Origin: Alphaproteobacteria bacterium | GTDB taxonomy: Bacteria > Pseudomonadota > Alphaproteobacteria > JACAEB01 | DNA: 64,000 nucleotides | NCBI GenBank assembly: GCA_013389075.1 | Contig: JACAEB010000217.1 | Span: 1,981 to 65,980 of the forward strand | Reading direction: 5' to 3' | Shown here: positions 11,370 through 54,535 of the stretch, piece by piece | Position numbering within the stretch: the stretch's first letter is position 1 | How the letters are laid out: every line of letters starts with the position of its first letter | Program-made: the position numbers and the translations under genes | The notes under the pieces: generated by a model | Databases searched by the model: none | The model's input: only the letters and a program-made list of their open reading frames with translations | What the model was told of the DNA's origin: nothing

Positions 11370-11957
11370 TCAGCCGCGTCCGGTCGGTTCGTCCCGCAAC
11401 GTCAGTGCCCCAATCGCCCTCACCGTGCTCGCCTGAGGGCCGGCGGGGCTTTCGGCCTCCGCGACGGCGAGTTCGACCGGCGTGTCGGGGGAGAGATCCT
11501 CGAAGCGGGGATCCACGACGGCGTTCTTGTGAAAGTAGATCTCGCGCCCGTCCGTGGTCGCGATAAATCCGTAGTCGGAGAAAAGACGAAGAACGCGGCC
11601 TTGCAGCGGACCGGCAAGCGTCTTCACATCGCCACGCACCTTCTGGGAGTGGTGCTCGAGCTGGCGCTCCATCGCGTCGAAGGCATCGCGCACCGCAAGA
11701 TACGAATCCAAATGGGCCTCGGCACTGCCGGGGTCGCGGCTGACCACGAGTTCGCGATCGGGCACGCGCACCTCGATCCGGACGTGATAGGCCCGCGAGG
11801 CCTGAGAGGGGCTGCGATGGGGGACCTCGACCACGACGCGGCACGAATTGATGTGGCGGAAGAAGCGATGCAGCTTGTCGGCCCGCTCGCGCACCCGGGC
11901 CTCGAGGGCGGACGAGCTGTCCATATTGTGGAAGGCGATCTCGAGCGGCGTGTCCAT
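11370..11957 (-). CDS. hpf: Ribosome hibernation promoting factor, long form
   Basis: 195 aa. N-terminal RaiA/HPF domain (MDTPLEIAFHNMD…AYHVRIEVRVP…) plus a C-terminal dimerisation-type domain (GRVLRLFSDYGFIATTDGREIYFHKN). Confidence 0.8.
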   Translation of the reverse strand: MDTPLEIAFHNMDSSSALEARVRERADKLHRFFRHINSCRVVVEVPHRSPSQASRAYHVRIEVRVPDRELVVSRDPGSAEAHLDSYLAVRDAFDAMERQLEHHSQKVRGDVKTLAGPLQGRVLRLFSDYGFIATTDGREIYFHKNAVVDPRFEDLSPDTPVELAVAEAESPAGPQASTVRAIGALTLRDEPTGRG

Positions 11958-11998
11958 GGCGTTGTTCCCTTCGTGGATTGAGCCCCGGCCCCGGTCGA

Positions 11999-12652
11999 TC
12001 ACTTTGGCGCCTGCCCTTCCGCGCCGATGAGCGGCACGAATGCGACGGCATCGAAGAATGCCTGCTCCAGTTCCCCGCCCTTCCGGACGAGACTGCGGAC
12101 GAGCCGCTCCTGGCCGGGCGGACCGATCGGAGCGATGAGGCGGCCGCCAGGGGCAAGCTGGTCGAGAAGCGCTGCCGGCACATGGGGCGCCGCCGCGGCG
12201 ACGATGATCGCATCGAAGGGCGCTGCTTCCGGCCAGCCGAGGGACCCATCGCCGCACCGCAGACGGACCGTCCGTATACCGCAGTCGGCGAGCGCCCTCC
12301 GGGCGGCCTCGAGGAGGCTTGCATGCCGCTCGATGGAATAGACCTCCGCCGCTAGGCCCGCCAGAACGGCCGCGCCATAGCCTGACCCGGTTCCCACGTC
12401 GAGCACGCGGTCCTTCTGTCCGATGGCGGCGAGTTGGGCCATGCGCGCGACGATGTAGGGCTGCGAAATCGTCTGCCCCTCGCCGATGGGAAGCGGCGTG
12501 TCCGCATAGGCGCGGGCCGCCAGTTCGCGCGGCACGAACCGTTCGCGCGGGACCGCCGCCATGGCGGCCAGGACTCGTGCATCGGTGATGCCATAGGCGG
12601 CGAGCTGCGCCAGCATGGCTTTCCGCGTCGGCGAATGGGCGTCTGCGCTCAT
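11999..12652 (-). CDS. pcm: Protein-L-isoaspartate O-methyltransferase
   Basis: 217 aa. SAM-binding motif VLDVGTGSGYGAAVLA. Conserved PIMT C-terminus. Confidence 0.9.
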   Translation of the reverse strand: MSADAHSPTRKAMLAQLAAYGITDARVLAAMAAVPRERFVPRELAARAYADTPLPIGEGQTISQPYIVARMAQLAAIGQKDRVLDVGTGSGYGAAVLAGLAAEVYSIERHASLLEAARRALADCGIRTVRLRCGDGSLGWPEAAPFDAIIVAAAAPHVPAALLDQLAPGGRLIAPIGPPGQERLVRSLVRKGGELEQAFFDAVAFVPLIGAEGQAPK

Positions 12653-12735
12653 GGTCGGGTCCGGTGTCGGGTCCGGTCGTCCCGCAACGGCCGGGCCCCG
12701 AAGGGAGCACCCGCCGCGCCTCGGGGAAGCCGAGA

Positions 12736-12924
12736 TCAATATCCATACCAGAGCCCGCCCATGACCGCGAGCAGCACGAGCCCGACCAGTCCTGCGATGA
12801 ACAGGACCTGTTGCCAGGGGCGATGGAGAACCACGATCGGCCCGCGGGCCCGATCGGCCGGCTGATCGCTGCGTGAGGCCGGAGCTCGCGCGTCCCGCCC
12901 GGTGCCGTCTGCGTTGCGGTCCAT
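12736..12924 (-). CDS. Small hypothetical membrane-anchored protein (62 aa)
   Basis: Start MDRNADG. C-terminal TM VLFIAGLVGLVLLAVMGGLWYGY. Weak RBS, no homology recognised. Confidence 0.25.
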   Translation of the reverse strand: MDRNADGTGRDARAPASRSDQPADRARGPIVVLHRPWQQVLFIAGLVGLVLLAVMGGLWYGY

Positions 12925-13149
12925 CCCCTGAAAACCCTTGCCGCGACACCGGGTTGCGCTCACGTCCCACGCATCGGGAGAGGCGGAAGATCCTCCGCCC
13001 ACGTCCCCCATCCCGACGGCGAGCGGCAGCAGCACTCAGGACCGGGAACCTTGCCGGATGTCCACACTTGTCCCCATGCGCCTGCCGGCCGGACAGCCGA
13101 TGCGGGACGCGCGATCACACCCCTCTTCATGAATGACGGGAGACGCACA

Positions 13150-13509
13150 ATGCCTTCAAGACCATCCCTGCGAACGAGCGCTATCGCACTCGCCGCCGCC
13201 CTCGGTCTCGGGCTCACCGCCAGCGCCGCCAACGCGCAATGGTGGGACGACGAGGAGCTCTACGAGGACAATGCCTACTCGGAGGGCTATTACGACGACT
13301 ACGAATATGACGACTGGTACTACGACGAATACGACGAGAGCTTCTACGATGACGAGGACTGGGGCTGGAATGACGACTACGAGTACGACGACACCAGCTA
13401 CTATGACGGGTACGGATATACGCCGACCGAGGATTACAGCGACTATTACGAGCCCGACTATCTGACCGAGGACGGCGATTTCGATCGGGAGTGGTGGGAC
13501 TGGTTCTGA
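13150..13509 (+). CDS. Secreted, extremely acidic Tyr/Trp/Asp-rich low-complexity protein (about 120 aa)
   Basis: RBS GGGAGA. Signal peptide MPSRPSLRTSAIALAAALGLGLTASAANA. Mature part is QWWDDEELYEDNAYSEGYYDDYEYDDWYYDEYDESFYDDEDWGWNDDYEYDDTSYYDGYGYTPTEDYSDYYEPDYLTEDGDFDREWWDWF. Confidence 0.6.
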   Translation: MPSRPSLRTSAIALAAALGLGLTASAANAQWWDDEELYEDNAYSEGYYDDYEYDDWYYDEYDESFYDDEDWGWNDDYEYDDTSYYDGYGYTPTEDYSDYYEPDYLTEDGDFDREWWDWF

Positions 13510-13557
13510 TCCGGACACCGCCTCACCGATCTCCCACCAGACACAAGGAGGGCTCCC

Positions 13558-14421
13558 ATGCCCAGCACCTACCAGAAGACGCCGCTGAGGCTGACCAAGG
13601 TCTCATCCCTCGCGCTGCTGAGCGCCGCCCTTTTCGCCACCCCCGCCGTGGCCGGCGACAAGGGCGGTGACAGCTATGGAAAGAAGAAGAGCGGTTATGA
13701 GCAAGGCATGAAACGCCATGGCTCCGACAAGGGCGACCAAAAGAGCCAAAGGAGTGACATGAACCGCTCGCAGCAGCAGCAGCAGGCCGGCCGCACCCTG
13801 ACGGGCACCGTGGTCCAGACCAAGGAGGTCCGTCGTCGCGATACCGGCAAGACCAATCTTGTCGCGCAGATCGAGCGGCAGAACGGGGAACGGATCATCG
13901 TCGACCTCGGCAACACCGACCAGTGGTACCAGGACGATTTCCAGAATGGCGACCGTGTCTCGATATCCGGAAACCCCGGTCGCGTCGGCAACCGCCTCGT
14001 CTATTTCGCCAAGACCGCCACGATCGACAACGAGCAGGTCAAGATCGAACGCGATCCGGGAAACCGCAAGTCGAAGACCCAGAACGATTCGCGTCAGATC
14101 GAGGGGCAGGTGTCCCAGACGCGGCAGATGAACGTTCGCGGTCAGGACACGCAGACCGTCTGGGCGCTGATCACCACCGATCAGGGCAATTATGTCGTCG
14201 ATCTCGGCGAGGCGCGCGACTTCAGCGCGAGCGATCTCAACAACCAAACGGTGAGCGCGCGAGGCCGCGACGTGCGCGTGCGTGATCGCATCGTCTTTCT
14301 CACCGACCAGTTCCGCATGAACGGACAGACCTACACGGCACTCCGGCCGGCCCGTGTCATCATGGGCTATGCCCGGAATGAGTCCGCACAGTCGGGCAAT
14401 CAGCAGAGCGGTCGACGCTAG
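13558..14421 (+). CDS. Secreted protein with two tandem ~85-aa beta-rich repeats and a polar Q-rich linker
   Basis: RBS AAGGAGGG. Signal peptide. Internal repeat: GERIIVDLGNTDQW…GDRVSISG…RLVYFAKTATIDNEQVKIER versus GNYVVDLGEARDFSASDL…QTVSARGRDVRVRDRIVFLTDQF…ALRP. Confidence 0.65.
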   Translation: MPSTYQKTPLRLTKVSSLALLSAALFATPAVAGDKGGDSYGKKKSGYEQGMKRHGSDKGDQKSQRSDMNRSQQQQQAGRTLTGTVVQTKEVRRRDTGKTNLVAQIERQNGERIIVDLGNTDQWYQDDFQNGDRVSISGNPGRVGNRLVYFAKTATIDNEQVKIERDPGNRKSKTQNDSRQIEGQVSQTRQMNVRGQDTQTVWALITTDQGNYVVDLGEARDFSASDLNNQTVSARGRDVRVRDRIVFLTDQFRMNGQTYTALRPARVIMGYARNESAQSGNQQSGRR

Positions 14422-14444
14422 GACCGGCATCGTCGCCACGAGGC

Positions 14445-14476
14445 AAAGGGCTGGGCTCTTCCGAGCCCGGCCCTTT
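14445..14476. terminator. Bidirectional hairpin between convergent genes
   Basis: AAAGGGCTGGGCTC-ttcc-GAGCCCGGCCCTTT. Confidence 0.5.
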
Positions 14477-14580
14477 CATTGCGCCTCATCTTTCCGTAAG
14501 GGTCATCATCCGGCCGCACAGGAAGGCGCCCGGGCGCCTGAACGGCATCCCGGGCGCCCGATGCAAAGTCCGGCGGATGG

Positions 14581-14655
14581 TCAGGCGAGCCCGACGAGCG
14601 AGAGCACGGCCAGCACGACCACGACGAGCCCGATCACATAGAAGACATTGTACAT
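14581..14655 (-). CDS. Uncalled 24-aa hydrophobic peptide (MYNVFYVIGLVVVVLAVLSLVGLA)
   Basis: Below the ORF-track size cutoff. AAGGAGG sits 6 nt upstream of ATG. Single TM helix. Lies immediately downstream of the DUF3618 stress gene on the same strand. Confidence 0.45.
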   Translation of the reverse strand: MYNVFYVIGLVVVVLAVLSLVGLA

Positions 14656-14683
14656 TCGAACCTCCTTTTCGGAGCCAATCCGC

Positions 14684-15853
14684 CTACGGAACAGTGGATC
14701 CGGGCGGCGAGACCGAACCCGCACCATTGCCATGGCGATGGGCTTCCGCTTCGGCGCGTCCGGCGTCGATCGCCTCCTCGCCGACGCGGCGCGCCTTTTC
14801 GACGACCGAGTTCGCGGCCCGGGCGGCGTCCTCCGGCGTCAGGCCCTCGCGACGAGCCGCTTCCGAGGCGGCCTCGCCCATCCGCCCGGCCACGTCGCCC
14901 GCCGTCGTCGCCGCATCGCGGGCCGCCCCTCGCGCGGCCTCCCGGAGCTCGCTGCCGGTCTCTCCGAGCCAGCGATCTTCCGTCCGCGTGCGCGGAAGCA
15001 GGCTGCCCAGAAGAGCGCCGAGGGCAACGCCGACGGCGCCCACGACGAGCGGATGATCGTCATAGTACTGACTTGCCTGGTGCCCGAGGGCGCGGGCGCG
15101 ATCAGCGCCCGCATGCGCGGCGTGCCGGGCGCCGTCCCTCGTGCCGTGCCAGAGCCGGGCCCCCTGGGCGGCGATCCTGTGACGGGCGCGGCTCGCCCGC
15201 TCCGAAAGCGATTCGAACGCGTGGTCGACCCGCTCCCGGAAGGCGTGGACTTCTTCTTCCGCGCTCTTCTTGAGCCCGAGCGCGCCGGCCTTGGCCTCGG
15301 CAAGGCGCTCGCTGAAGCGATCCGCCATCTCGCCCGTCTCCTGGCGGACGCCGGACAAGGTCCGGTGGACGCGGTCATGATGTTCGACCGCTTCCAGATC
15401 ATCCGGATCGAGAGGTTCTTCGCGGTAATAGGCACCGTGATATCCGCGCGCGAAGCCGGTATCGCCCGATGCCGGCGTGGGGCCGATGGTCTCGTGGGGC
15501 GAGACGCCGCCCGCATCGTGCCGGGGCATGGTGGGCGCGAAGGCATTCGCGCTTCCCGATCCCGCGAACGCACCATTGCCCGAATGGCCAGCGCCCGTCC
15601 GATGACGCGCGTCCGACATCATCAGCCAGGCGACACCTGTCACCACGAGGGCGAGCGGGAGCGGATCGGCCTTCACCCGACGCGCAATGTTCTCGCCGAA
15701 CTCGGCGCCTTCCTGCCGCGCAAGGCCCAACGCCCGGTCGAGCAGCTCGCCGGGGCTGATACGATCCTTCAACGCCTCGATGGTTTCGTCCATCTCGGCG
15801 CGCGTCCCGCGGATCTCGCCTTCGAGTTCGGCGGATCGTGCATGTGCGCTCAT
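14684..15853 (-). CDS. DUF3618 domain-containing stress protein (membrane-anchored)
   Basis: N-terminal DUF3618-like coiled region (SAELEGEIRGTRAEMDETIEALKDRISPGELLD) with a TM segment. Ends at TAG. Confidence 0.7.
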   Translation of the reverse strand: MSAHARSAELEGEIRGTRAEMDETIEALKDRISPGELLDRALGLARQEGAEFGENIARRVKADPLPLALVVTGVAWLMMSDARHRTGAGHSGNGAFAGSGSANAFAPTMPRHDAGGVSPHETIGPTPASGDTGFARGYHGAYYREEPLDPDDLEAVEHHDRVHRTLSGVRQETGEMADRFSERLAEAKAGALGLKKSAEEEVHAFRERVDHAFESLSERASRARHRIAAQGARLWHGTRDGARHAAHAGADRARALGHQASQYYDDHPLVVGAVGVALGALLGSLLPRTRTEDRWLGETGSELREAARGAARDAATTAGDVAGRMGEAASEAARREGLTPEDAARAANSVVEKARRVGEEAIDAGRAEAEAHRHGNGAGSVSPPGSTVP

Positions 15854-16275
15854 TTCATCTTTTCCTTTGCGAATTTGGCGTCATCCCGGACCGTCTGGAC
15901 GGTGCGACCGGGAATGAGGTTGTAGGCGGACAGTTCCGAGCGGCCGCGCAGAACCAGCGCCAGACCGATCACGGCGACGACGCCCACGATGATTGCGGCC
16001 AGCCAGGCGGGCATCGCGCGCGCCAGGCCGTAGACGACGGCATCGAGCAGAACGATCAGCGCCGCGAGCGAGAGGATCAGGCCCGTGGCCAGCGACACGA
16101 TGCCGCCCATGACATCGCCGGCCTTCTCCGACATCTCGGCGCGCGCAAGCGCGATCTCCTGACGGAACAGCGTGCTCAGCTGTCCGACGAGGTCGCGCAG
16201 GAGCGCCCCGATGGACCTTGGGTCTTCGCGGCCATCCCTCGCATTGAGGTGGACATCGTGCGGAATATCGCTCAT
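15850..16275 (-). CDS. Phage holin family / DUF1469-like membrane protein of general-stress clusters
   Basis: 141 aa with two TM segments. RBS GGAGGAGG. ATGA-type overlap with neighbours. Confidence 0.7.
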   Translation of the reverse strand: MSDIPHDVHLNARDGREDPRSIGALLRDLVGQLSTLFRQEIALARAEMSEKAGDVMGGIVSLATGLILSLAALIVLLDAVVYGLARAMPAWLAAIIVGVVAVIGLALVLRGRSELSAYNLIPGRTVQTVRDDAKFAKEKMK

Positions 16276-16811
16276 GGCAGGCCTCCTCCTGTCTCGTCCA
16301 GTCCGGTCGGATCGGCATAGGGCGTATACGGATCGGTGTCGCGCGTCCGGCCGGCCGCTTGGCCCGCACGGGCCAGCCGGCTGAGAGCAAGGCCGAGAGC
16401 CACCGATCCGCCCAGAAACAGGGCTGGCTGGTGTCGCGCGAAATCGCTGACCTCATGCGAGAGCGCGCTCATGTTCTGTGACCGGATGTGTTCCGATGCC
16501 TGATCCACTCTGCGCGCCGCCTGCTCGGCGGCGTTCGAAATCAGGCGATCCCGGTCCTTCAACACATCGGCGGAGGCCCTGAGGCCGGCGGCGAGCGCGT
16601 CGAAATGACCGGCGATGGCGCGTTTGCCCTGCTCGGCGGCATTGCCGGCCTCGGCGCGCAGTCCCTCCGTCACCTCGTCGACCGCCTCGCGCGCGCTCTG
16701 CCGCAGAGCCTTCGGCGCTTCCCGCAGCTTCTCGACGGTTTCCTCCGTCCGGGCCGGACCGGGCTCGCCGGTCCCGGCGCCTTGGGGATGGTCGGATGGG
16801 CTTTCGGACAT
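16272..16811 (-). CDS. DUF883 (ElaB/YqjD-like) stress protein with C-terminal TM anchor
   Basis: 179 aa. Coiled N-terminus and C-terminal PALFLGGSVALGLALSRLA. RBS GAGGAGG. Confidence 0.7.
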   Translation of the reverse strand: MSESPSDHPQGAGTGEPGPARTEETVEKLREAPKALRQSAREAVDEVTEGLRAEAGNAAEQGKRAIAGHFDALAAGLRASADVLKDRDRLISNAAEQAARRVDQASEHIRSQNMSALSHEVSDFARHQPALFLGGSVALGLALSRLARAGQAAGRTRDTDPYTPYADPTGLDETGGGLP

Positions 16812-16854
16812 TACGGGCCTCCTCTTGTTGGTCGTGTGGCTCCCGGCGCGCCGG

Positions 16855-17298
16855 TCAGTCGGCCTTCAGGGACTGATAGTGAGCGCCCATTTCCTCGGCC
16901 TTCTTCTCGTCGATGACCTCCTGCGCCTGCGGAAACATCTCATCCTCCTCGTCGGAGATGTGATGCTCGAGCGCCTCCTTCAGCTCCCGGATCTTCTCGA
17001 TGAACTCGTCGGAGGTCTTGTCCATCGCCGAAAGCTCATCGAGCATGGTTTTCGCTTCCTCATGCTCGCTCAGCGCATCGCGAACTTCCTCGCGCGCCTC
17101 GCTGTCGGCCTTCTCCTTGCGGAACTGCGGATAGAACTCCTCCTCCTCGAAGCGCGTATGCACCTCGAGATCGGCCTTGATCTCCTCGAACAGCTTCTCG
17201 CGTGTCCGCTCCGCGCCGTCGGAGCTGTCCAGAATCTTGGACAGCGCAGAGGTCACCTTCTCGTGATCATCGTGCAGCATCTTGTAGATGGTCGGCAT
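16855..17298 (-). CDS. Hemerythrin HHE cation-binding domain protein
   Basis: H…HxxxE and HxxxxE spacing (MLHDDHEKV…EVHTRFEEEEFYP…LEHHISDEEDEMFP). Start at the second ATG, 6 nt after AAGGAG. Confidence 0.8.
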   Translation of the reverse strand: MPTIYKMLHDDHEKVTSALSKILDSSDGAERTREKLFEEIKADLEVHTRFEEEEFYPQFRKEKADSEAREEVRDALSEHEEAKTMLDELSAMDKTSDEFIEKIRELKEALEHHISDEEDEMFPQAQEVIDEKKAEEMGAHYQSLKAD

Positions 17299-17343
17299 GT
17301 GCATCTCCTTCAGCGGGCGGACGGCCACACGGCTTCCTGCCCT

Positions 17344-17379
17344 TCGCAGCCAAAACCCGGGGCTTGGGCAATCTGTTCC
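17344..17379 (-). promoter_or_regulatory. EcfG-type promoter-like element GGAAC-N17-GGTT upstream of the hemerythrin stress operon
   Basis: Minus-strand GGAAC (17379..17375) and GGTT (17357..17354). Shares the palindrome CTGTTCCCC-N8-GGGGAACAG (17373..17398) with the plus-strand promoter. Confidence 0.4.
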
Positions 17380-17391
17380 CCCGCCTCACGG

Positions 17392-17416
17392 GGAACAGCG
17401 GGGCTCCTTGCGCGTT
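17392..17416 (+). promoter_or_regulatory. EcfG (general stress response sigma)-type promoter GGAAC-N16-CGTT upstream of ku
   Basis: GGAAC at 17392-96, 16-nt spacer, CGTT at 17413-16. ku GTG at 17455. Confidence 0.5.
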
Positions 17417-49920: not shown

Positions 49921-50283
49921 TCAGGGCTTCTTCACCCAGCTTCCGTCGGCCTTGCGGAAATACTCGCCCGAGGGTGTGCGGTCGAAGAGCTGCTGGCCGA
50001 AAATGGCCTCGACCGCTTCGAGCGTGGAATTGGTCTTGCGGGCGGTGTCGCGATAGAGCTCGCGGCGCTTGAGATTGACCTCGTCGATCTGACGCTGGAC
50101 CTCGGGCGAGACCGCGCCCACCGCCGCCATGTAGCCGCTGGCGGTGTCGCCCACGAGCCCCGCCCGCCGCTCGGCATCGAGCACCCGGGCCGCGTTCGAG
50201 CTGGTGGGCAGAAGGCTCGCGCCGACGGCGATGAGGAAGGCGAGGGCTGCGAGCAGTCCGCGTTTGGTGATCGGGGTCGCCAT
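49921..50283 (-). CDS. ydbL: YdbL family periplasmic protein (DUF1318)
   Basis: Signal peptide. DUF1318-like core (GLVGDTASGYMAAV…EVNLKRRELY). RBS AAGGAG 6 nt upstream. Confidence 0.7.
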   Translation of the reverse strand: MATPITKRGLLAALAFLIAVGASLLPTSSNAARVLDAERRAGLVGDTASGYMAAVGAVSPEVQRQIDEVNLKRRELYRDTARKTNSTLEAVEAIFGQQLFDRTPSGEYFRKADGSWVKKP

Positions 50284-50307
50284 GGCGCGCTCCTTCGTCA
50301 TCTGCGG

Positions 50308-50532
50308 TCAGAACAGGTCCGGATTGGCGGCGATGGCCTCTTCGGCCTCCCGCTCGATCTTCACCCGGACCTCCTGCGTGATGTTCACGTTGAGATTGAT
50401 CTCGATGGGCTTGTCGGGCGCCTGCACCTTCACGGTGGGCTGGCAAGCGGACACGAGCAGTCCCGTGCCGAAAAGGGCTGCGCCCAGAAGGGGCGCGGCC
50501 GCGCCCTGCCTTGCCGTCCTGTCCTGCCGCAT
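50308..50532 (-). CDS. ynbE: YnbE family lipoprotein
   Basis: 74 aa, lipobox LVSAC, beta-rich. Lies between ydbH and ydbL as in Enterobacteria. Confidence 0.65.
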   Translation of the reverse strand: MRQDRTARQGAAAPLLGAALFGTGLLVSACQPTVKVQAPDKPIEINLNVNITQEVRVKIEREAEEAIAANPDLF

Positions 50533-50576
50533 CGGCACCTCCGTCCGGCGCATCCTCGCCGGCAATTGGGGAAATC

Positions 50577-53500
50577 TCATGGCGCGGCCTCGCGGCCCCG
50601 CTCGATCAGGTCCTGCACCCGGAAGCCCACCGTTCCCTCCCGCAGGAGTTCGGCGAAGGCGCCGCTCGTGCGGATGCGAATCTTGAAGGGATAGCCGTCA
50701 TAGACGGACGGATTGGCCCCCAGCAGCTCGACCCCCACATCGAGCCGGCCATCCACCGCCCCGTCGAGCGTCAGCGCCAGCTCCTCCCATTCGAAGTTAT
50801 CAAGGGCGCGGAACAAAAGCGAGGTTTGTTCGTTGCCGGCCTCCGCCGCCGCCGCGCCCTCGCCCCTGTAGGACAGGATGCCCCCGGGCGGGCTGCGTCC
50901 CGTGAGGCGGCCATCGACGATGCGGGCGCCGTCCGGCCTCACCACCACCGGCACCCGGCCATCGAGACGGCCGCTCCCGCTCAGCCCCGGCAGACGCAGG
51001 AGCGGCAGCACCTCGGCAAGATCGAGCCCGTCGGCCCGGAAGACCACGTCCCGCTCGACCGTGTCCGGCGCGAAGGAGAGGCGCGCATCGCGCACGCCAA
51101 CCTCGCCCCCCGCGAAGGGCCAGATCGCCCTGTCGAGGGCCAGCATCGCGTCGGGCTCGAGGGCGAAGACGATCTCGCCGTTCTCGAGCGGCACCGGCCC
51201 GTCGATCCGCGCGACCCGGGCCGTCTGGAGGCCCTCGGTCAGCGGCGGCAGGAGGCTCTTCAGCCGAATGTCCGCATCGAGACCTTCGACCGGCGCGAGA
51301 TAGGAGAGGAACTCGATGCCCGCAAGGCTGAACGCGCCGCGCGTCGAAAGCCGCCCGCCGCCCCAGTCGGCATGGGCCGAGCCCCCCGCCCGGCCCGCGA
51401 CCTCCGCCACGAGGCCGCGCAAGGCAGGCACGAGCGTCTGAGGCTGGAGCCCGTTCGGGGTGAAGACGAGATCAGCGAGGGTGATGTCGGCGGCGCCCTT
51501 GCCCGTTTTGAGCGCGTGACGTCCCGAGAAGTCCCCGAGCCTGCGCCCCTCCGCCTCCAGCGTGCCGGAGAAGCGGGCCTGCCCCGCCTCGATCTGCGCC
51601 GTGCCGGCGGCGAGCACGGGCGCATAGCGGGCGGGCCGTGCGAGGTCGGCGACGCCGAGGCGCGGGACGGTCAGCGTGCCGGAGAGGATGGCGCTGCCCG
51701 TGCCCGACAGGGTGGCCGTCAGGGCGAGCGGGCTCAGCACGGCAAGATCGGGCAGCGCCCGCATCTGCCCGCCCTCGGTCTCGAAGGCGAGCTGCCAGGT
51801 CTCCGCCTCCGGCGCATAGGAGAGCGCGAACCGGGTCTCCGGCAGGGTCCCCTCGAGCGCCGGCAGGCCCTTGGCATCGGGCGGACCCTCGAGCCGCACG
51901 CCGCGCGCGGGCAGCGCGCCGGCGAGAACCAGCGCCGGCCGGTCGTCCGCCTGCGGCGCGAAGCTGAGGAAGGGCACGGCATCGCCCCGGTCGCAGAGCG
52001 AGAAACCCTCCGGTCCCGGATGGATGGCGATTTCCGCAAAATCGATGCGCCTCGCCCGGAGCGTGCCGCACGGCCCCTCTCCCGAGCCGAGCCGCAGCGC
52101 GAAGGCCTCCGGCTCGCGTGTGAAGCTCGCCGGCAGGACGAGGGCCGTATCGGCCAGCGTGAGCCAGGAGAAAAAGGCCCCGTCGGCCTCGGCGTCGATG
52201 GCGACCTGCCCGGCGTAACGCTGCGGCGTTCCGCGGGCGGAGAGGCCGAAGGCGCGCGGCGCCAGCGAGAGGCCGCCTGCCCGCCACGGGCCGCCCTCGA
52301 GGGCGAGCCGGTCGAGCGCGAAGCGCTCGACGCGGAGCGCGCCGTTCTCGCCCACCGGGGCAAGGCTGAGCGCGGCATCGAGTTCGGCCGTGAGCGTCAC
52401 CGGATCCGCCCGCCGCAGCACGAGCGCGGCGCCCGCGCGCACGGATGCCTCCGCGCCGTCCGCATCGAGCCTCAGCGCGAGGCCGCCCTGCTCGGGATCG
52501 ACATAGGTCCCCACGGGCAGCCCGGCCCTCTCCGGCGCCGCCTCCCCGCCCGGCTCCCAGACGAGCGAGAGGAAGGCGCCCTCGGCGGACGCCGTCTCGG
52601 GAGCCAGAACGGCGACCCCCGTGCTCCGCCAACCCTCTTCGCCGCCGTGGGAGACATCGGCGTCGAGCACGAGGCGGGCGCCCCCGCCGAGCGCGCCGAA
52701 GGCGCCGAGGAGATCGTCCCGGAAGGGACGGACCGCATCGAGCTCGAGCGCGGCCCGCGTCGAGGGCGCGAGCGTCCCGAGCGCGCGATCGAAGACCGGC
52801 GGCGGCAGCGACAGCGCCGTCACGTCGAGGCGGACATGACCCGACCCGTTCGCCCCTGCCCCGTCATACCGGGCGGAAAGGACCGCCTCCCCCGCCGCAG
52901 CCTCCGCGAGGGCGAGATCGGCGAGACGCGCCGTGACCGCCCCCTCGAGGCGCCCGCGCGTGAGGCGCATCTCGCCCGTGAGCGCGGCGAGCGAAAAGCG
53001 CTCCGACAAAGGCTCCGTCCCCGGACGATCGAGATCGAGGTCGAGATCGAGCACGCCCTCGCGTATGCGCACGGTCGCGGTTCCGGCGATGGAGCGCTCG
53101 GGCGCGCCGCCACGCGCGATGACGAGGTCGGGACTCGCACCGAGGCCGCCCTCCCCGTCGGGCGCCAGCGCGCCGTCGAGCCGGATCGTGAACGGACCGT
53201 CGGGTGTCTCGAGGTCGAGTTCGGCCTCGCGCAGGGTGATGGGCGGCAGGCTGGCGGGATCAAATCCCGCGCCCCCGCCTCCGCCCGCCGGCAGGGGCAG
53301 CACCAGGCCCGCGCCCGCGCTGTCGAGACGTGCGCCAAGGCGCAGCCCGTCGATGCGGACGCTCCCGAGCCGGCCGCCGAGGAGACCGAGCGGGGTCCAG
53401 CCGATCTCGGCCCCGGCGAGCGACAGCGCACCGGGCGGGCCGAGAGAGCTCTCGCCGAGTCGCAGACCGAAGAGGCCTGCCCGCTCCACCGTGAGGCGCG

Positions 53501-53681
53501 CGGGGTGAAGGCCCGCCCGCGCCGCGGCACCTTCGAGGAGCGGCTCGAGGATGGACGGCCGGGTGAGGAGGAACACGGCGCAGGCGCTCAGGCCCGCAAG
53601 GGCGCCAAGCCCGACGAGCCCGCGCCGCGCCCAGCGCAGGCTTGCCCGCCCCGCCCCCCTCTCGTCTCCGGTCCGGGCCAC
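50577..53681 (-). CDS. ydbH: YdbH-like AsmA-family intermembrane (phospholipid transport-type) protein
   Basis: 1034 aa, N-terminal TM anchor, long repetitive beta-rich periplasmic region. Forms a ydbH-ynbE-ydbL operon. Confidence 0.75.
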   Translation of the reverse strand: MARTGDERGAGRASLRWARRGLVGLGALAGLSACAVFLLTRPSILEPLLEGAAARAGLHPARLTVERAGLFGLRLGESSLGPPGALSLAGAEIGWTPLGLLGGRLGSVRIDGLRLGARLDSAGAGLVLPLPAGGGGGAGFDPASLPPITLREAELDLETPDGPFTIRLDGALAPDGEGGLGASPDLVIARGGAPERSIAGTATVRIREGVLDLDLDLDRPGTEPLSERFSLAALTGEMRLTRGRLEGAVTARLADLALAEAAAGEAVLSARYDGAGANGSGHVRLDVTALSLPPPVFDRALGTLAPSTRAALELDAVRPFRDDLLGAFGALGGGARLVLDADVSHGGEEGWRSTGVAVLAPETASAEGAFLSLVWEPGGEAAPERAGLPVGTYVDPEQGGLALRLDADGAEASVRAGAALVLRRADPVTLTAELDAALSLAPVGENGALRVERFALDRLALEGGPWRAGGLSLAPRAFGLSARGTPQRYAGQVAIDAEADGAFFSWLTLADTALVLPASFTREPEAFALRLGSGEGPCGTLRARRIDFAEIAIHPGPEGFSLCDRGDAVPFLSFAPQADDRPALVLAGALPARGVRLEGPPDAKGLPALEGTLPETRFALSYAPEAETWQLAFETEGGQMRALPDLAVLSPLALTATLSGTGSAILSGTLTVPRLGVADLARPARYAPVLAAGTAQIEAGQARFSGTLEAEGRRLGDFSGRHALKTGKGAADITLADLVFTPNGLQPQTLVPALRGLVAEVAGRAGGSAHADWGGGRLSTRGAFSLAGIEFLSYLAPVEGLDADIRLKSLLPPLTEGLQTARVARIDGPVPLENGEIVFALEPDAMLALDRAIWPFAGGEVGVRDARLSFAPDTVERDVVFRADGLDLAEVLPLLRLPGLSGSGRLDGRVPVVVRPDGARIVDGRLTGRSPPGGILSYRGEGAAAAEAGNEQTSLLFRALDNFEWEELALTLDGAVDGRLDVGVELLGANPSVYDGYPFKIRIRTSGAFAELLREGTVGFRVQDLIERGREAAP

Positions 53682-53917
53682 GCCGCCGCCCTTTCCTGTT
53701 GCCCCGTCGCCGGATGATGGGCAGCTCGCCCCTCATCGTCAAACGGGGAATGCGGGATGACGCGCCTCAAGCGCGCGGGAACCGGCCGTGGTAGAAAGGC
53801 GTTGCTGTTCCTGATGGGCGCCCTCGCGCCCCCAGGGATCACAACGCGGGATCCGGTCCGGCCAAGACGCCCTGTCGCGGCCGGACGGTCGTCCGCCTGA
53901 GATGGGAAACGCAGACC

Positions 53918-54535
53918 ATGATGACCAAGACAGTCCCCGCCCCGGCTCCCTTCTGGATCCGCTGCCTGACGGGGTTCGCGGCGCTGCTCGCCGCCGCCGC
54001 TCTCACCGTGCCGGGATCCGCGCGCGCCCAGGACGAACCGGCGGCGTCCGAGGACACGTTCGCGGAAGACGAGATCGTGAGCGCCGTCGCCGAGTTCTTC
54101 GGCGTCACAGCGGAAGCGGCCGGCGAGGCCGTGGAACGGATCTTTGCCGACAATGGCCGCCCGAACGGCTACATCAAGGGTGAGGAAGCGGCCGGCGCCA
54201 TCGGCGTGGGTCTGCGCTATGGCGAGGGCACGCTCTACATGAAGAGCGGCGCGACGCGGCAGGTCTTCTGGCAAGGCCCCTCGATCGGCTGGGACTTCGG
54301 GGGCAATGCCGCCAAGACCTTCACCCTCGTCTACAACCTCCAGCGCGTCGACGACATCTACCAGCGCTTTCCCGGGGTCGAGGGCTCGGCCTATTTCATC
54401 GGCGGGATCGGCGTGAATTATCAGCGCGCGAACAACATCACCCTCGCGCCCATGCGGGCGGGTGTCGGCTTCCGCCTCGGCGCGAATGTCGGCTATCTCG
54501 CTTATTCGCGTCAGCGCAACTGGCTTCCCTTCTGA
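53918..54535 (+). CDS. DUF1134 (EipA-like) periplasmic envelope-integrity protein
   Basis: Signal peptide. Conserved GYIKGEE…GLRYGEGTLY…WQGPSIGWDFGG…IGGIGVNY core. Confidence 0.7.
   Translation: MMTKTVPAPAPFWIRCLTGFAALLAAAALTVPGSARAQDEPAASEDTFAEDEIVSAVAEFFGVTAEAAGEAVERIFADNGRPNGYIKGEEAAGAIGVGLRYGEGTLYMKSGATRQVFWQGPSIGWDFGGNAAKTFTLVYNLQRVDDIYQRFPGVEGSAYFIGGIGVNYQRANNITLAPMRAGVGFRLGANVGYLAYSRQRNWLPF

Follow-up and report, generated by a model that had tools for sequence, protein, structure and literature searches.

The 64-kb window analyzed here (64,000 nucleotides; positions 1,981 to 65,980 of contig JACAEB010000217.1, forward strand, from the alphaproteobacterial metagenome-assembled genome or MAG GCA_013389075.1) contains two adjacent genes for small secreted proteins. 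Gene 1 encodes a hyper-acidic, aromatic-rich protein, and gene 2, which begins 48 nt after the end of gene 1, encodes a basic protein with two repeats that are predicted to be OB folds. A first-pass annotation of the window, made from the sequence alone, had reported both open reading frames (ORFs) and had proposed that they form one secreted module. We found both ORFs where it had placed them (Table 1). We will first describe the two proteins and then the evidence from other genomes that they belong together.

Gene 1 had been described as a signal peptide followed by about 120 amino acids. The signal peptide is present, but 119 amino acids is the length of the entire protein, and the acidic part is only about 90 amino acids long (89-90 after the predicted cleavage between ANA and Q). 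By sequence reading, the signal region has neither a cysteine or lipobox nor a twin-arginine motif. In an alignment of 10 homologs, A29 never varies, and at least 90% of the sequences keep A27 and Q30. In the mature protein, Asp and Glu make up 41.6% and Tyr, Trp and Phe 34.8% (the earlier estimates were about 40% and about 30%), but Lys, Arg and His just 1%: it has a single arginine, no lysine, histidine or cysteine, and a net charge of -36. As noticed before, it begins with QWWDDEE and ends with REWWDWF. Two acidic tryptophan motifs are conserved: DDW[YF]YD in the center and ..DW[FW]..F at the C terminus. A regular-expression search found no canonical Dx[DN]xDG loop or EF-hand in gene 1; the nearest stretch is TEDGDFD. 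The G+C content at the third codon positions (GC3) is 0.79, in line with the coding bias of the genome. Across gene 1 runs an antisense ORF (13156-13518 on the - strand; 120 amino acids), whose Val/Ile-rich product mirrors the runs of GAC and TAC codons and could mislead gene callers. We searched copies of Pfam-A and NCBIfam as well as the PDB and found no match to the acidic family, which agrees with the earlier remark that gene 1 belongs to no characterized family.

Gene 2 was said to have its own strong ribosome binding site, a basic Q-rich linker and two repeats of about 85 amino acids, and all of these are present. Its Shine-Dalgarno sequence is GGAGG, and the signal peptide is followed by a linker (containing SQQQQQAG) that is probably disordered, by the two repeats, and by a short basic tail. 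Without its signal peptide, the protein has a net charge of +11 and an isoelectric point of 10. BLASTP did not detect the internal repeat, but the repeat is real because its Smith-Waterman score of 71 is 6.6 standard deviations above that of 2000 composition-preserving shuffles (31 +/- 6; none scored as high). The annotation had left the fold of the two beta-domains to structural comparison. An AlphaFold2 model built with an alignment of 59 sequences has block means of the predicted local distance difference test (pLDDT) that are mostly 84-97 over both domains, as compared to a pLDDT of 46 for a run with the single sequence. In the model, the domains are predicted to be five-stranded closed beta barrels with a helix or loop between strands 3 and 4, as in OB folds, and the top Foldseek matches are proteins that have two OB folds in tandem: the HIN-200 domains of AIM2 and IFI16, Teb1, RPA70, and the Thermus SSB. 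Across 350 domains of the family, six basic positions (R1, K11, R16, R64, R68, and R87) are the best-conserved polar positions.

Table 1. Coordinates of the gene pair, of other features of the window, and of related loci. Positions refer to the window unless a locus is named; aa, amino acids.
Feature	Position or locus	Strand	Basis or remark
Gene 1, secreted hyper-acidic aromatic protein, 119 aa, standalone DDW[YF]YD acidic module	13150..13509	+	ORF and homolog comparison
Gene 1 Shine-Dalgarno sequence GGGAG	13138..13142	+	sequence reading
Gene 1 Sec-type signal peptide, residues 1-29, predicted cleavage between ANA and QWW	13150..13236	+	sequence reading
Gene 1 core motif DDWYYD, residues 54-59, family signature	13309..13326	+	homolog alignment
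Gene 1 C-terminal acidic-Trp motif EWWDWF-COOH	13489..13506	+	aligns with second DDW[FY] of other homologs
Gene 2, secreted basic protein, 287 aa, two predicted OB-fold repeats	13558..14421	+	ORF, repeat statistics, predicted structure
Gene 2 Shine-Dalgarno sequence GGAGG, 6 nt 5' of ATG	13547..13551	+	sequence reading
Gene 2 signal peptide, residues 1-32, predicted cleavage between AVA and GDK	13558..13653	+	sequence reading
Gene 2 basic polar Q-rich linker, residues 33-78, net charge +4	13654..13791	+	low confidence in model, probably disordered
Gene 2 OB-fold repeat 1 (predicted), residues 79-167	13792..14058	+	repeat alignment, AlphaFold model
Gene 2 OB-fold repeat 2 (predicted), residues 179-265	14092..14352	+	repeat alignment, AlphaFold model
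Candidate EcfG promoter GGAAC-N16-ACTT, 105 nt upstream of gene 1 ATG	13045..13069	+	-35 perfect, -10 imperfect
Hairpin behind gene 2, perfect 14-bp core at 14445-14476	14440..14487	+	-39.8 kcal/mol, z = -5.1
HPF-CSD fusion, 206 aa, beside pcm	11370-11990	-	Ribosomal_S30AE E = 6e-16, C-terminal CSD E = 6e-7
pcm	11999-12655	-	
DUF3618 / holin-X / hemerythrin cluster, then Ku and LigD beyond	14684-17328	-	
EcfG-type motif GGAAC-N17-GGTT	17354-17379	-	
EcfG-type motif GGAAC-N16-CGTT	17392-17416	+	
EipA (envelope integrity protein A)	53918-54535	+	E = 1.5e-72
OB protein P0004	locus L084		Logan metagenome assembly
OB protein P0014	loci L085-87		Rhodothalassiaceae MAG
OB protein P0051	locus L083		Microvirga sp.
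OB protein P0037	locus L092		NCBI assembly GCA_030154625.1
OB protein P0070	loci L093/94		Logan metagenome assemblies
OB protein P0035	locus L097		Logan metagenome assembly
OB protein P0023	loci L098/99		Logan and JGI metagenome assemblies
OB protein P0044	locus L100		complete genome, 12.7 Mb
OB protein P0091, charge-inverted variant	loci L095/96		ENA and Logan metagenome assemblies
Charge-inverted pair	L095 2479-2841 and 3001-4032 (also L096)		

We examined the genomic contexts of nine other members of the OB family that are not fused to an acidic module (Table 1). All nine OB genes are preceded, on the same strand, by an ORF for a small secreted protein that is rich in aromatic residues. Eight of these ORFs encode hyper-acidic proteins of 101-129 amino acids, whose mature parts are 31-42% Asp or Glu and 20-38% Tyr, Trp or Phe, and lie 34-77 nt from the OB gene; the ninth, a variant, is 159 nt away (L095/96). 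When compared to these upstream proteins, gene 1 gave z scores of 11.8, 8.6, and 4.5, and none of 2000 composition-preserving shuffles did as well. In an alignment of ten standalone acidic proteins, the same blocks occur in the same order: QWW[DE]..(E)LYE, EGYYD, [DN]DW[YF]YD, (Y)EDY(S/G)xYY, and, at the C terminus, an acidic Trp/Phe motif. G46, W56, Y58, D59, and Y96 (numbered as in gene 1) are invariant, and W115 is conserved in at least 90%. The suggestion that gene 1 encodes a disordered protein is weakened by these ordered and conserved motifs. We define a new family, the "DDW[YF]YD acidic partner". Its members carry a signal peptide and a mature part that is hyper-acidic and aromatic, have [DN]DW[YF]YD at the center and an acidic Trp/Phe motif at the C terminus, and are either encoded directly upstream of tandem OB repeats or fused to them. 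Gene 1 has all of these features.

The two proteins of a pair have opposite net charges in all seven pairs for which we computed them. In six of the eight acidic pairs, the small protein is at -25 to -36 and the OB protein is at +4 to +19. At L095/96, the signs are inverted: the OB protein, with its long acidic Q/E tail, is at -20, and its small secreted upstream partner is rich in Arg, Tyr, and Trp (34% aromatic) with a net charge of +5.

The first-pass annotation had staked its proposal of a single secreted module on the two genes occurring together in other genomes. They do: the pair is found again in several bacterial phyla, gene order and spacing are kept in all nine of the other unfused contexts, and in other lineages the two parts are fused (see below). 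Therefore, each of the two genes encodes half of a single conserved module that is extracytoplasmic. No further neighbor was conserved across the loci that we examined, so the module appears to be self-contained. A scan of genome contigs seeded with pcm, which lies near gene 1 in the window, found no close relatives (60% identity at best). We had considered that the isoaspartate-repair function of pcm might be linked to the Asp-rich gene 1 protein, but we dropped this idea because the adjacency of pcm is not conserved in other loci.

Among the top 150 matches to the OB repeats, about 28 proteins, of which about 25 are non-redundant, combine an acidic and aromatic N-terminal module of 170-290 amino acids, located behind the signal peptide, with 2-4 OB repeats; several are in clusters that are named Planctomycetota. 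These fused modules contain, in order, PYYEDDAWYD(I/V)TEWFDGNDYNPTDE, then DDWFYDY(Y/W)DDGY, and then 2-3 Dx[DN]xDG loops with an exact 15-residue spacing. The motif [DEN][DN]W[YF]YD is present in 21 of 25 fused N-terminal modules, as compared to 0.1 expected from shuffles. A profile of the ten standalone proteins, run with the composition correction off and with each target's own shuffles as the null, gave a median z of 5.1 against the fused modules, and 20 of 29 beat all 100 of their shuffles; the modules that failed are of a distinct "EWYDPTDWFDGNN...GWHYEWD" type. Furthermore, a metagenome scan that was seeded with the gene 1 alignment alone found three single ORFs with a gene 1-like N-terminal part (FYEDRY.LDDWYYDFYD) and two OB repeats, as well as one more standalone small protein at the end of a contig. 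From these motifs and profile matches, we conclude that gene 1 is a free-standing counterpart of the acidic module at the N terminus of the fused proteins. In the contexts that we examined, the predicted acidic module is either directly upstream (in Alphaproteobacteria and other lineages) or fused at the N terminus (the Planctomycetota type). Another merged protein, P0041 (416 amino acids), joins a Microvirga-type acidic partner to the OB protein with the second signal peptide still in the middle; this is probably a frameshift or a gene-calling read-through and not a true fusion.

A HMMER profile of the two repeats of gene 2 matched 980 cluster representatives at E <= 1e-3, of which 456 were at E <= 1e-10 and 28 were at E <= 1e-30, and these matches each carry 2-5 tandem copies of the domain. 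The closest relatives, P0004 and P0014, share the two-repeat architecture and are about 37-40% identical. In contrast, a word-indexed search of 5.8 billion proteins returned only self matches for gene 1 and for gene 2 (locus tag HXY25_12185 from the NCBI MAG and the Logan assemblies of SRR10095373/4). Given these homologs, we consider the self-match-only searches to be an artefact of limited sensitivity, and neither gene is an orphan as judged by sequence. Gene 2 had no match in a PDB sequence search and nothing above threshold in NCBIfam or in our local copy of Pfam, which was without the PF26390 model; in Pfam, gene 2 and its relatives gave only sub-threshold matches to TOBE and tRNA_anti-like.

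PF26390 (MamS_MamX) is nevertheless the probable home of gene 2. Precomputed Pfam matches to this family are on record for seven relatives: P0132 has an unmarked match (E <= 1e-5) and matches our repeat profile with E = 9e-19; P0005 has a weak match; and P0004, P0023, P0035, P0037, and P0044 have faint ones. No precomputed match is on record for gene 2 itself, and we link it to PF26390 through its relatives. On these profile matches, gene 2 belongs to a large family of tandem-OB proteins that is related to the MamS/MamX domain, and it is likely a member of PF26390. Other members of the OB family have additional domains: P0007 combines OB repeats with a PDZ domain and a C-terminal acidic and aromatic tail, and P0039 and P0060 combine OB repeats with PRC-barrel domains.

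The first-pass annotation had also suggested that gene 1 might be a high-capacity binder of cations such as calcium or lanthanides. The support for this is indirect: gene 1 itself has no canonical loops, but its fused homologs have Dx[DN]xDG loops and other family members have EF-hands. Linear motifs of the Dx[DN]xDG type are well known to bind Ca2+ (PMC3123361). P0053 has a pair of EF-hands at its C terminus, behind the OB repeats. Directly 3' of the pair at L098 (3989-5165; also at L099) are genes for a 99-amino-acid secreted EF-hand protein and for a TSP_C (thrombospondin C-terminal-like) protein, so this is a local cluster of calcium-binding proteins. As for lanthanides, genes 1 and 2 have no match to LanM (lanmodulin) in NCBIfam. 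Just two of 59 OB-family members have weak NCBIfam matches to lanmodulin and XopAW, and these are due to unrelated EF-hand tails. We dropped a lanthanide role because gene 1 lacks EF-hands and the 64-kb window lacks pyrroloquinoline quinone (PQQ) or XoxF-type genes. We also found nothing in support of a further suggestion, that gene 1 is a sulfotyrosine-type mimic.

Upstream of gene 1 is a candidate promoter for EcfG, the general stress sigma factor (Table 1). At L084, the closest orthologous locus, a perfect GGAAC-N16-CGTT is found at -108, and L085 has GAAAC-N17-CGTT at -135. These sites, and the EcfG-type promoters of the neighboring stress genes, suggest that the pair may be under EcfG stress control.

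Genes 1 and 2 almost certainly act together, and our best explanation for how they do so is as follows. The Sec system would export both proteins into the periplasm or envelope. There, the polyanionic and aromatic gene 1 protein would bind the basic OB folds directly, with one Trp-centered acidic motif for each OB fold, on the face that other OB folds use to bind polyanions. The dense carboxylates would probably hold divalent cations (Ca2+), which would modulate the complex. In this alphaproteobacterium, EcfG probably turns the pair on, and the pair may serve in envelope protection or in cation handling. Taken as a whole (a conserved module, direct docking, modulation by Ca2+, and an EcfG-controlled role in the envelope), we give this explanation an even chance of being correct.

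Several points weigh against it. First, the evidence that the two proteins touch is indirect. The charge-inverted pair is a single case, and the homology of its small partner to gene 1 is not established. Second, the relationship of gene 1 to the fused modules depends on motifs and on the profile test without composition correction. When HMMER applies this correction, a hidden Markov model of the fused N-terminal modules does not tell gene 1 from its shuffles, and the pairwise z scores between gene 1 and these modules are mostly 0-2, with only P0019 reaching 4.9. Our shuffle controls preserve composition but not local (dipeptide) periodicity. Third, neither gene 1 nor its alphaproteobacterial orthologs contain canonical Dx[DN]xDG or EF-hand loops, and we infer Ca2+ binding by gene 1 only from its charge density and its relatives. 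Fourth, in the putative promoter of gene 1, only two of the four -10 bases match. L083 has no EcfG-type site within 350 nt upstream, and in a wider scan upstream of seven paired loci, L083, L092, L093, and L095 had no EcfG-type match, although the upstream sequence of L092 is too short to tell.

The alternative that survives best is that the two proteins function together without binding each other. Gene 1 might be a calsequestrin-like sponge for cations, with low affinity and high capacity, or an inhibitor of mineral (carbonate or phosphate) precipitation in the envelope, and the OB protein might bind another polyanion of the envelope, such as a glycan, lipopolysaccharide or polyphosphate. 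The composition of gene 1 (42% Asp or Glu in the mature protein, net charge -36) would suit such a sponge, and its GYGY and Tyr-rich stretches presumably recall mineral-interacting peptides such as statherin. The loops and EF-hands of its relatives and the calcium-binding neighbors at L098 fit as well, as does the source of the DNA: runs SRR10095373/4 are from the carbonate-hosted thermal swamp of Liard River Hot Springs (PMC8027834). However, a simple ion sponge would not need conserved and ordered Trp motifs, and gene 1 has no canonical Ca2+ loops. Furthermore, that the proteins are physical partners is indicated by the strict gene order, by spacing that is close in translational terms, by the repeated fusion, and by the matching of opposite charges. 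We consider this alternative to be unlikely, if still worth attention.

A second alternative is that the pair is a biomineral system, in which the acidic partner of a MamS/MamX-type OB protein would act like Mms6 or MamJ to control the nucleation or growth of an extracytoplasmic mineral. MamS and MamX are magnetosome proteins whose beta domains were earlier modeled as OB folds, and their deletion leads to defective magnetite crystals (PMC3905215, PMC3847676). Together with the PF26390 matches of the seven relatives, this speaks for the idea. But there are no mam genes in the 64-kb window or in the related loci that we examined, nor are there iron or mineral genes in those loci; gene 2 itself has no PF26390 match on record, and its signal peptide is cleavable, unlike the N-terminal membrane anchor of MamS and MamX; and with 980 representatives, the family extends far beyond the magnetotactic bacteria. 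A mineral-controlling role therefore seems improbable to us.

That the OB protein binds nucleic acid (DNA of the extracellular matrix, or DNA in transit through the periplasm), with gene 1 as a DNA mimic that regulates or blocks it, seems very improbable. In its favor, gene 2 is basic and its partner unites dense negative charge with aromatic rings. Also, the best structural matches are to OB folds that bind single-stranded or double-stranded DNA, including tandem-OB DNA binders, and genes for Ku and LigD are nearby. On the other hand, matches of OB folds to SSB are generic, the family consensus lacks the aromatics of strands 2-3 that are typical of OB folds that bind single-stranded DNA, both proteins are exported, and the proximity of Ku and LigD is not conserved in other loci.

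Finally, although its extreme composition, its self-match-only result in a standard homology search, and the antisense ORF might make gene 1 look like a chance low-complexity ORF or a shadow of that Val/Ile-rich frame, this has practically no chance of being correct and on sequence grounds we regard it as excluded, as gene 1 has a signal peptide, a Shine-Dalgarno sequence and a GC3 of 0.79, its orthologs share ordered motifs (z up to 11.8), and the acidic module is in frame with OB repeats in fused proteins.

The remainder of the locus was described correctly by the first-pass annotation as lying between pcm-hpf and a general-stress operon. It had also described a hairpin terminator behind the pair. 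There is a strong hairpin (Table 1), which folds better than any of 200 shuffles, but a U-tract is missing and a simple terminator scan did not call it; it is probably a transcription terminator all the same. The pcm gene and the HPF-CSD fusion are transcribed divergently from the pair, and the HPF-CSD architecture is also called on a Logan contig. Between pcm and gene 1 is a candidate ORF of 99 amino acids (12736-13035 on the - strand), for which the Logan contig has a gene call; it has a hydrophobic C-terminal segment and no match in Pfam, and it ends 9 nt from the putative promoter of gene 1. Just past the hairpin, at the end of the stress cluster, an ORF of 49-50 amino acids (14581-14733 on the - strand) encodes a single hydrophobic helix (MYNVFYVIGLVVVVLAVLSLVGLA), also without a match in Pfam.

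Two EcfG-type motifs lie back to back between the hemerythrin / holin-X / DUF3618 cluster and Ku-LigD (Table 1). This suggests that the genes for non-homologous end joining and the stress cluster may both be in the general stress regulon. Elsewhere in the window, GGAAC-N17-CGTT is found at 53778-53803 (+), about 115 nt upstream of the gene for EipA. An ORF of 1068 amino acids (50511-53717 on the + strand) has no match in Pfam, a G+C content of 0.87 at first codon positions, and a translation rich in Arg, Glu, Gly, and Ala; it resembles a shadow ORF of a genuine gene on the opposite strand. It adjoins a DUF1318 gene (49921-50301 on the - strand).

The OB domain is already in Pfam as MamS_MamX. 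What appear to be undescribed in Pfam, NCBIfam, and the PDB are the conserved family of acidic partners and the obligatory pairing, and neither the pair nor the motif was described in the literature that we searched. As each member that we examined has an acidic or aromatic partner, either adjacent or fused, there is a testable hypothesis for the entire OB family, with nearly 1000 representatives from several phyla: that the ligand of the OB fold is acidic and that binding depends on Ca2+. The pair also offers a lead on the MamS/MamX domain of magnetosomes. More speculatively, the acidic module and the MamS/MamX-type OB fold might be a widespread docking pair of the cell envelope, driven by charge and Ca2+, which might polymerize or form coacervates in the fused forms with multiple repeats, and the MamS/MamX domain of magnetosomes would then grip acidic mineral-binding polypeptides. 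We think that this broader idea is doubtful. More generally, small proteins of biased composition can seem to be orphans in searches of billions of sequences, and yet be recovered by using synteny and motif-aware statistics.

Among known systems, the proposed docking resembles dockerin and cohesin, in that a short acidic module with duplicated motifs meets a partner made of tandem beta domains. This is an analogy of architecture only: there is no relationship in sequence or fold, and the acidic module carries no cargo enzyme. Gene 1 shares its extreme density of carboxylates with Dx[DN]xDG and EF-hand modules, lanmodulin, and calsequestrin-type buffers, and its fused homologs carry tandem Dx[DN]xDG loops. 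It differs in lacking a canonical loop, and none of them is 35% aromatic as gene 1 is. What gene 1 conserves are Trp/Tyr motifs and not positions for Ca2+ ligands.

Compared to the OB folds that bind polyanions (SSB, PriB, RPA, Stn1, HIN-200, and Teb1), gene 2 is exported and only 10-18% identical. The consensus of its family lacks the conserved aromatics of strands 2-3 that stack with single-stranded DNA, and its proposed ligand would be a protein instead of a nucleic acid. MamS and MamX have an N-terminal membrane anchor, whereas gene 2 has a cleavable signal peptide. Gene 2 also differs from them in having two tandem copies of the domain, no magnetochrome domain, no magnetosome gene cluster, and an acidic partner, which is not described for MamS or MamX. 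The periplasmic BOF proteins (YgiW and YdeI) are single-domain proteins without an acidic partner, and gene 2 and 18 relatives had no match to BOF in Pfam (at E <= 1 or E <= 0.01). However, gene 2 has in common with BOF stress proteins such as YgiW that it is a small secreted OB-fold protein with a link to stress, and MamS was once modeled on YgiW (PMC3905215).

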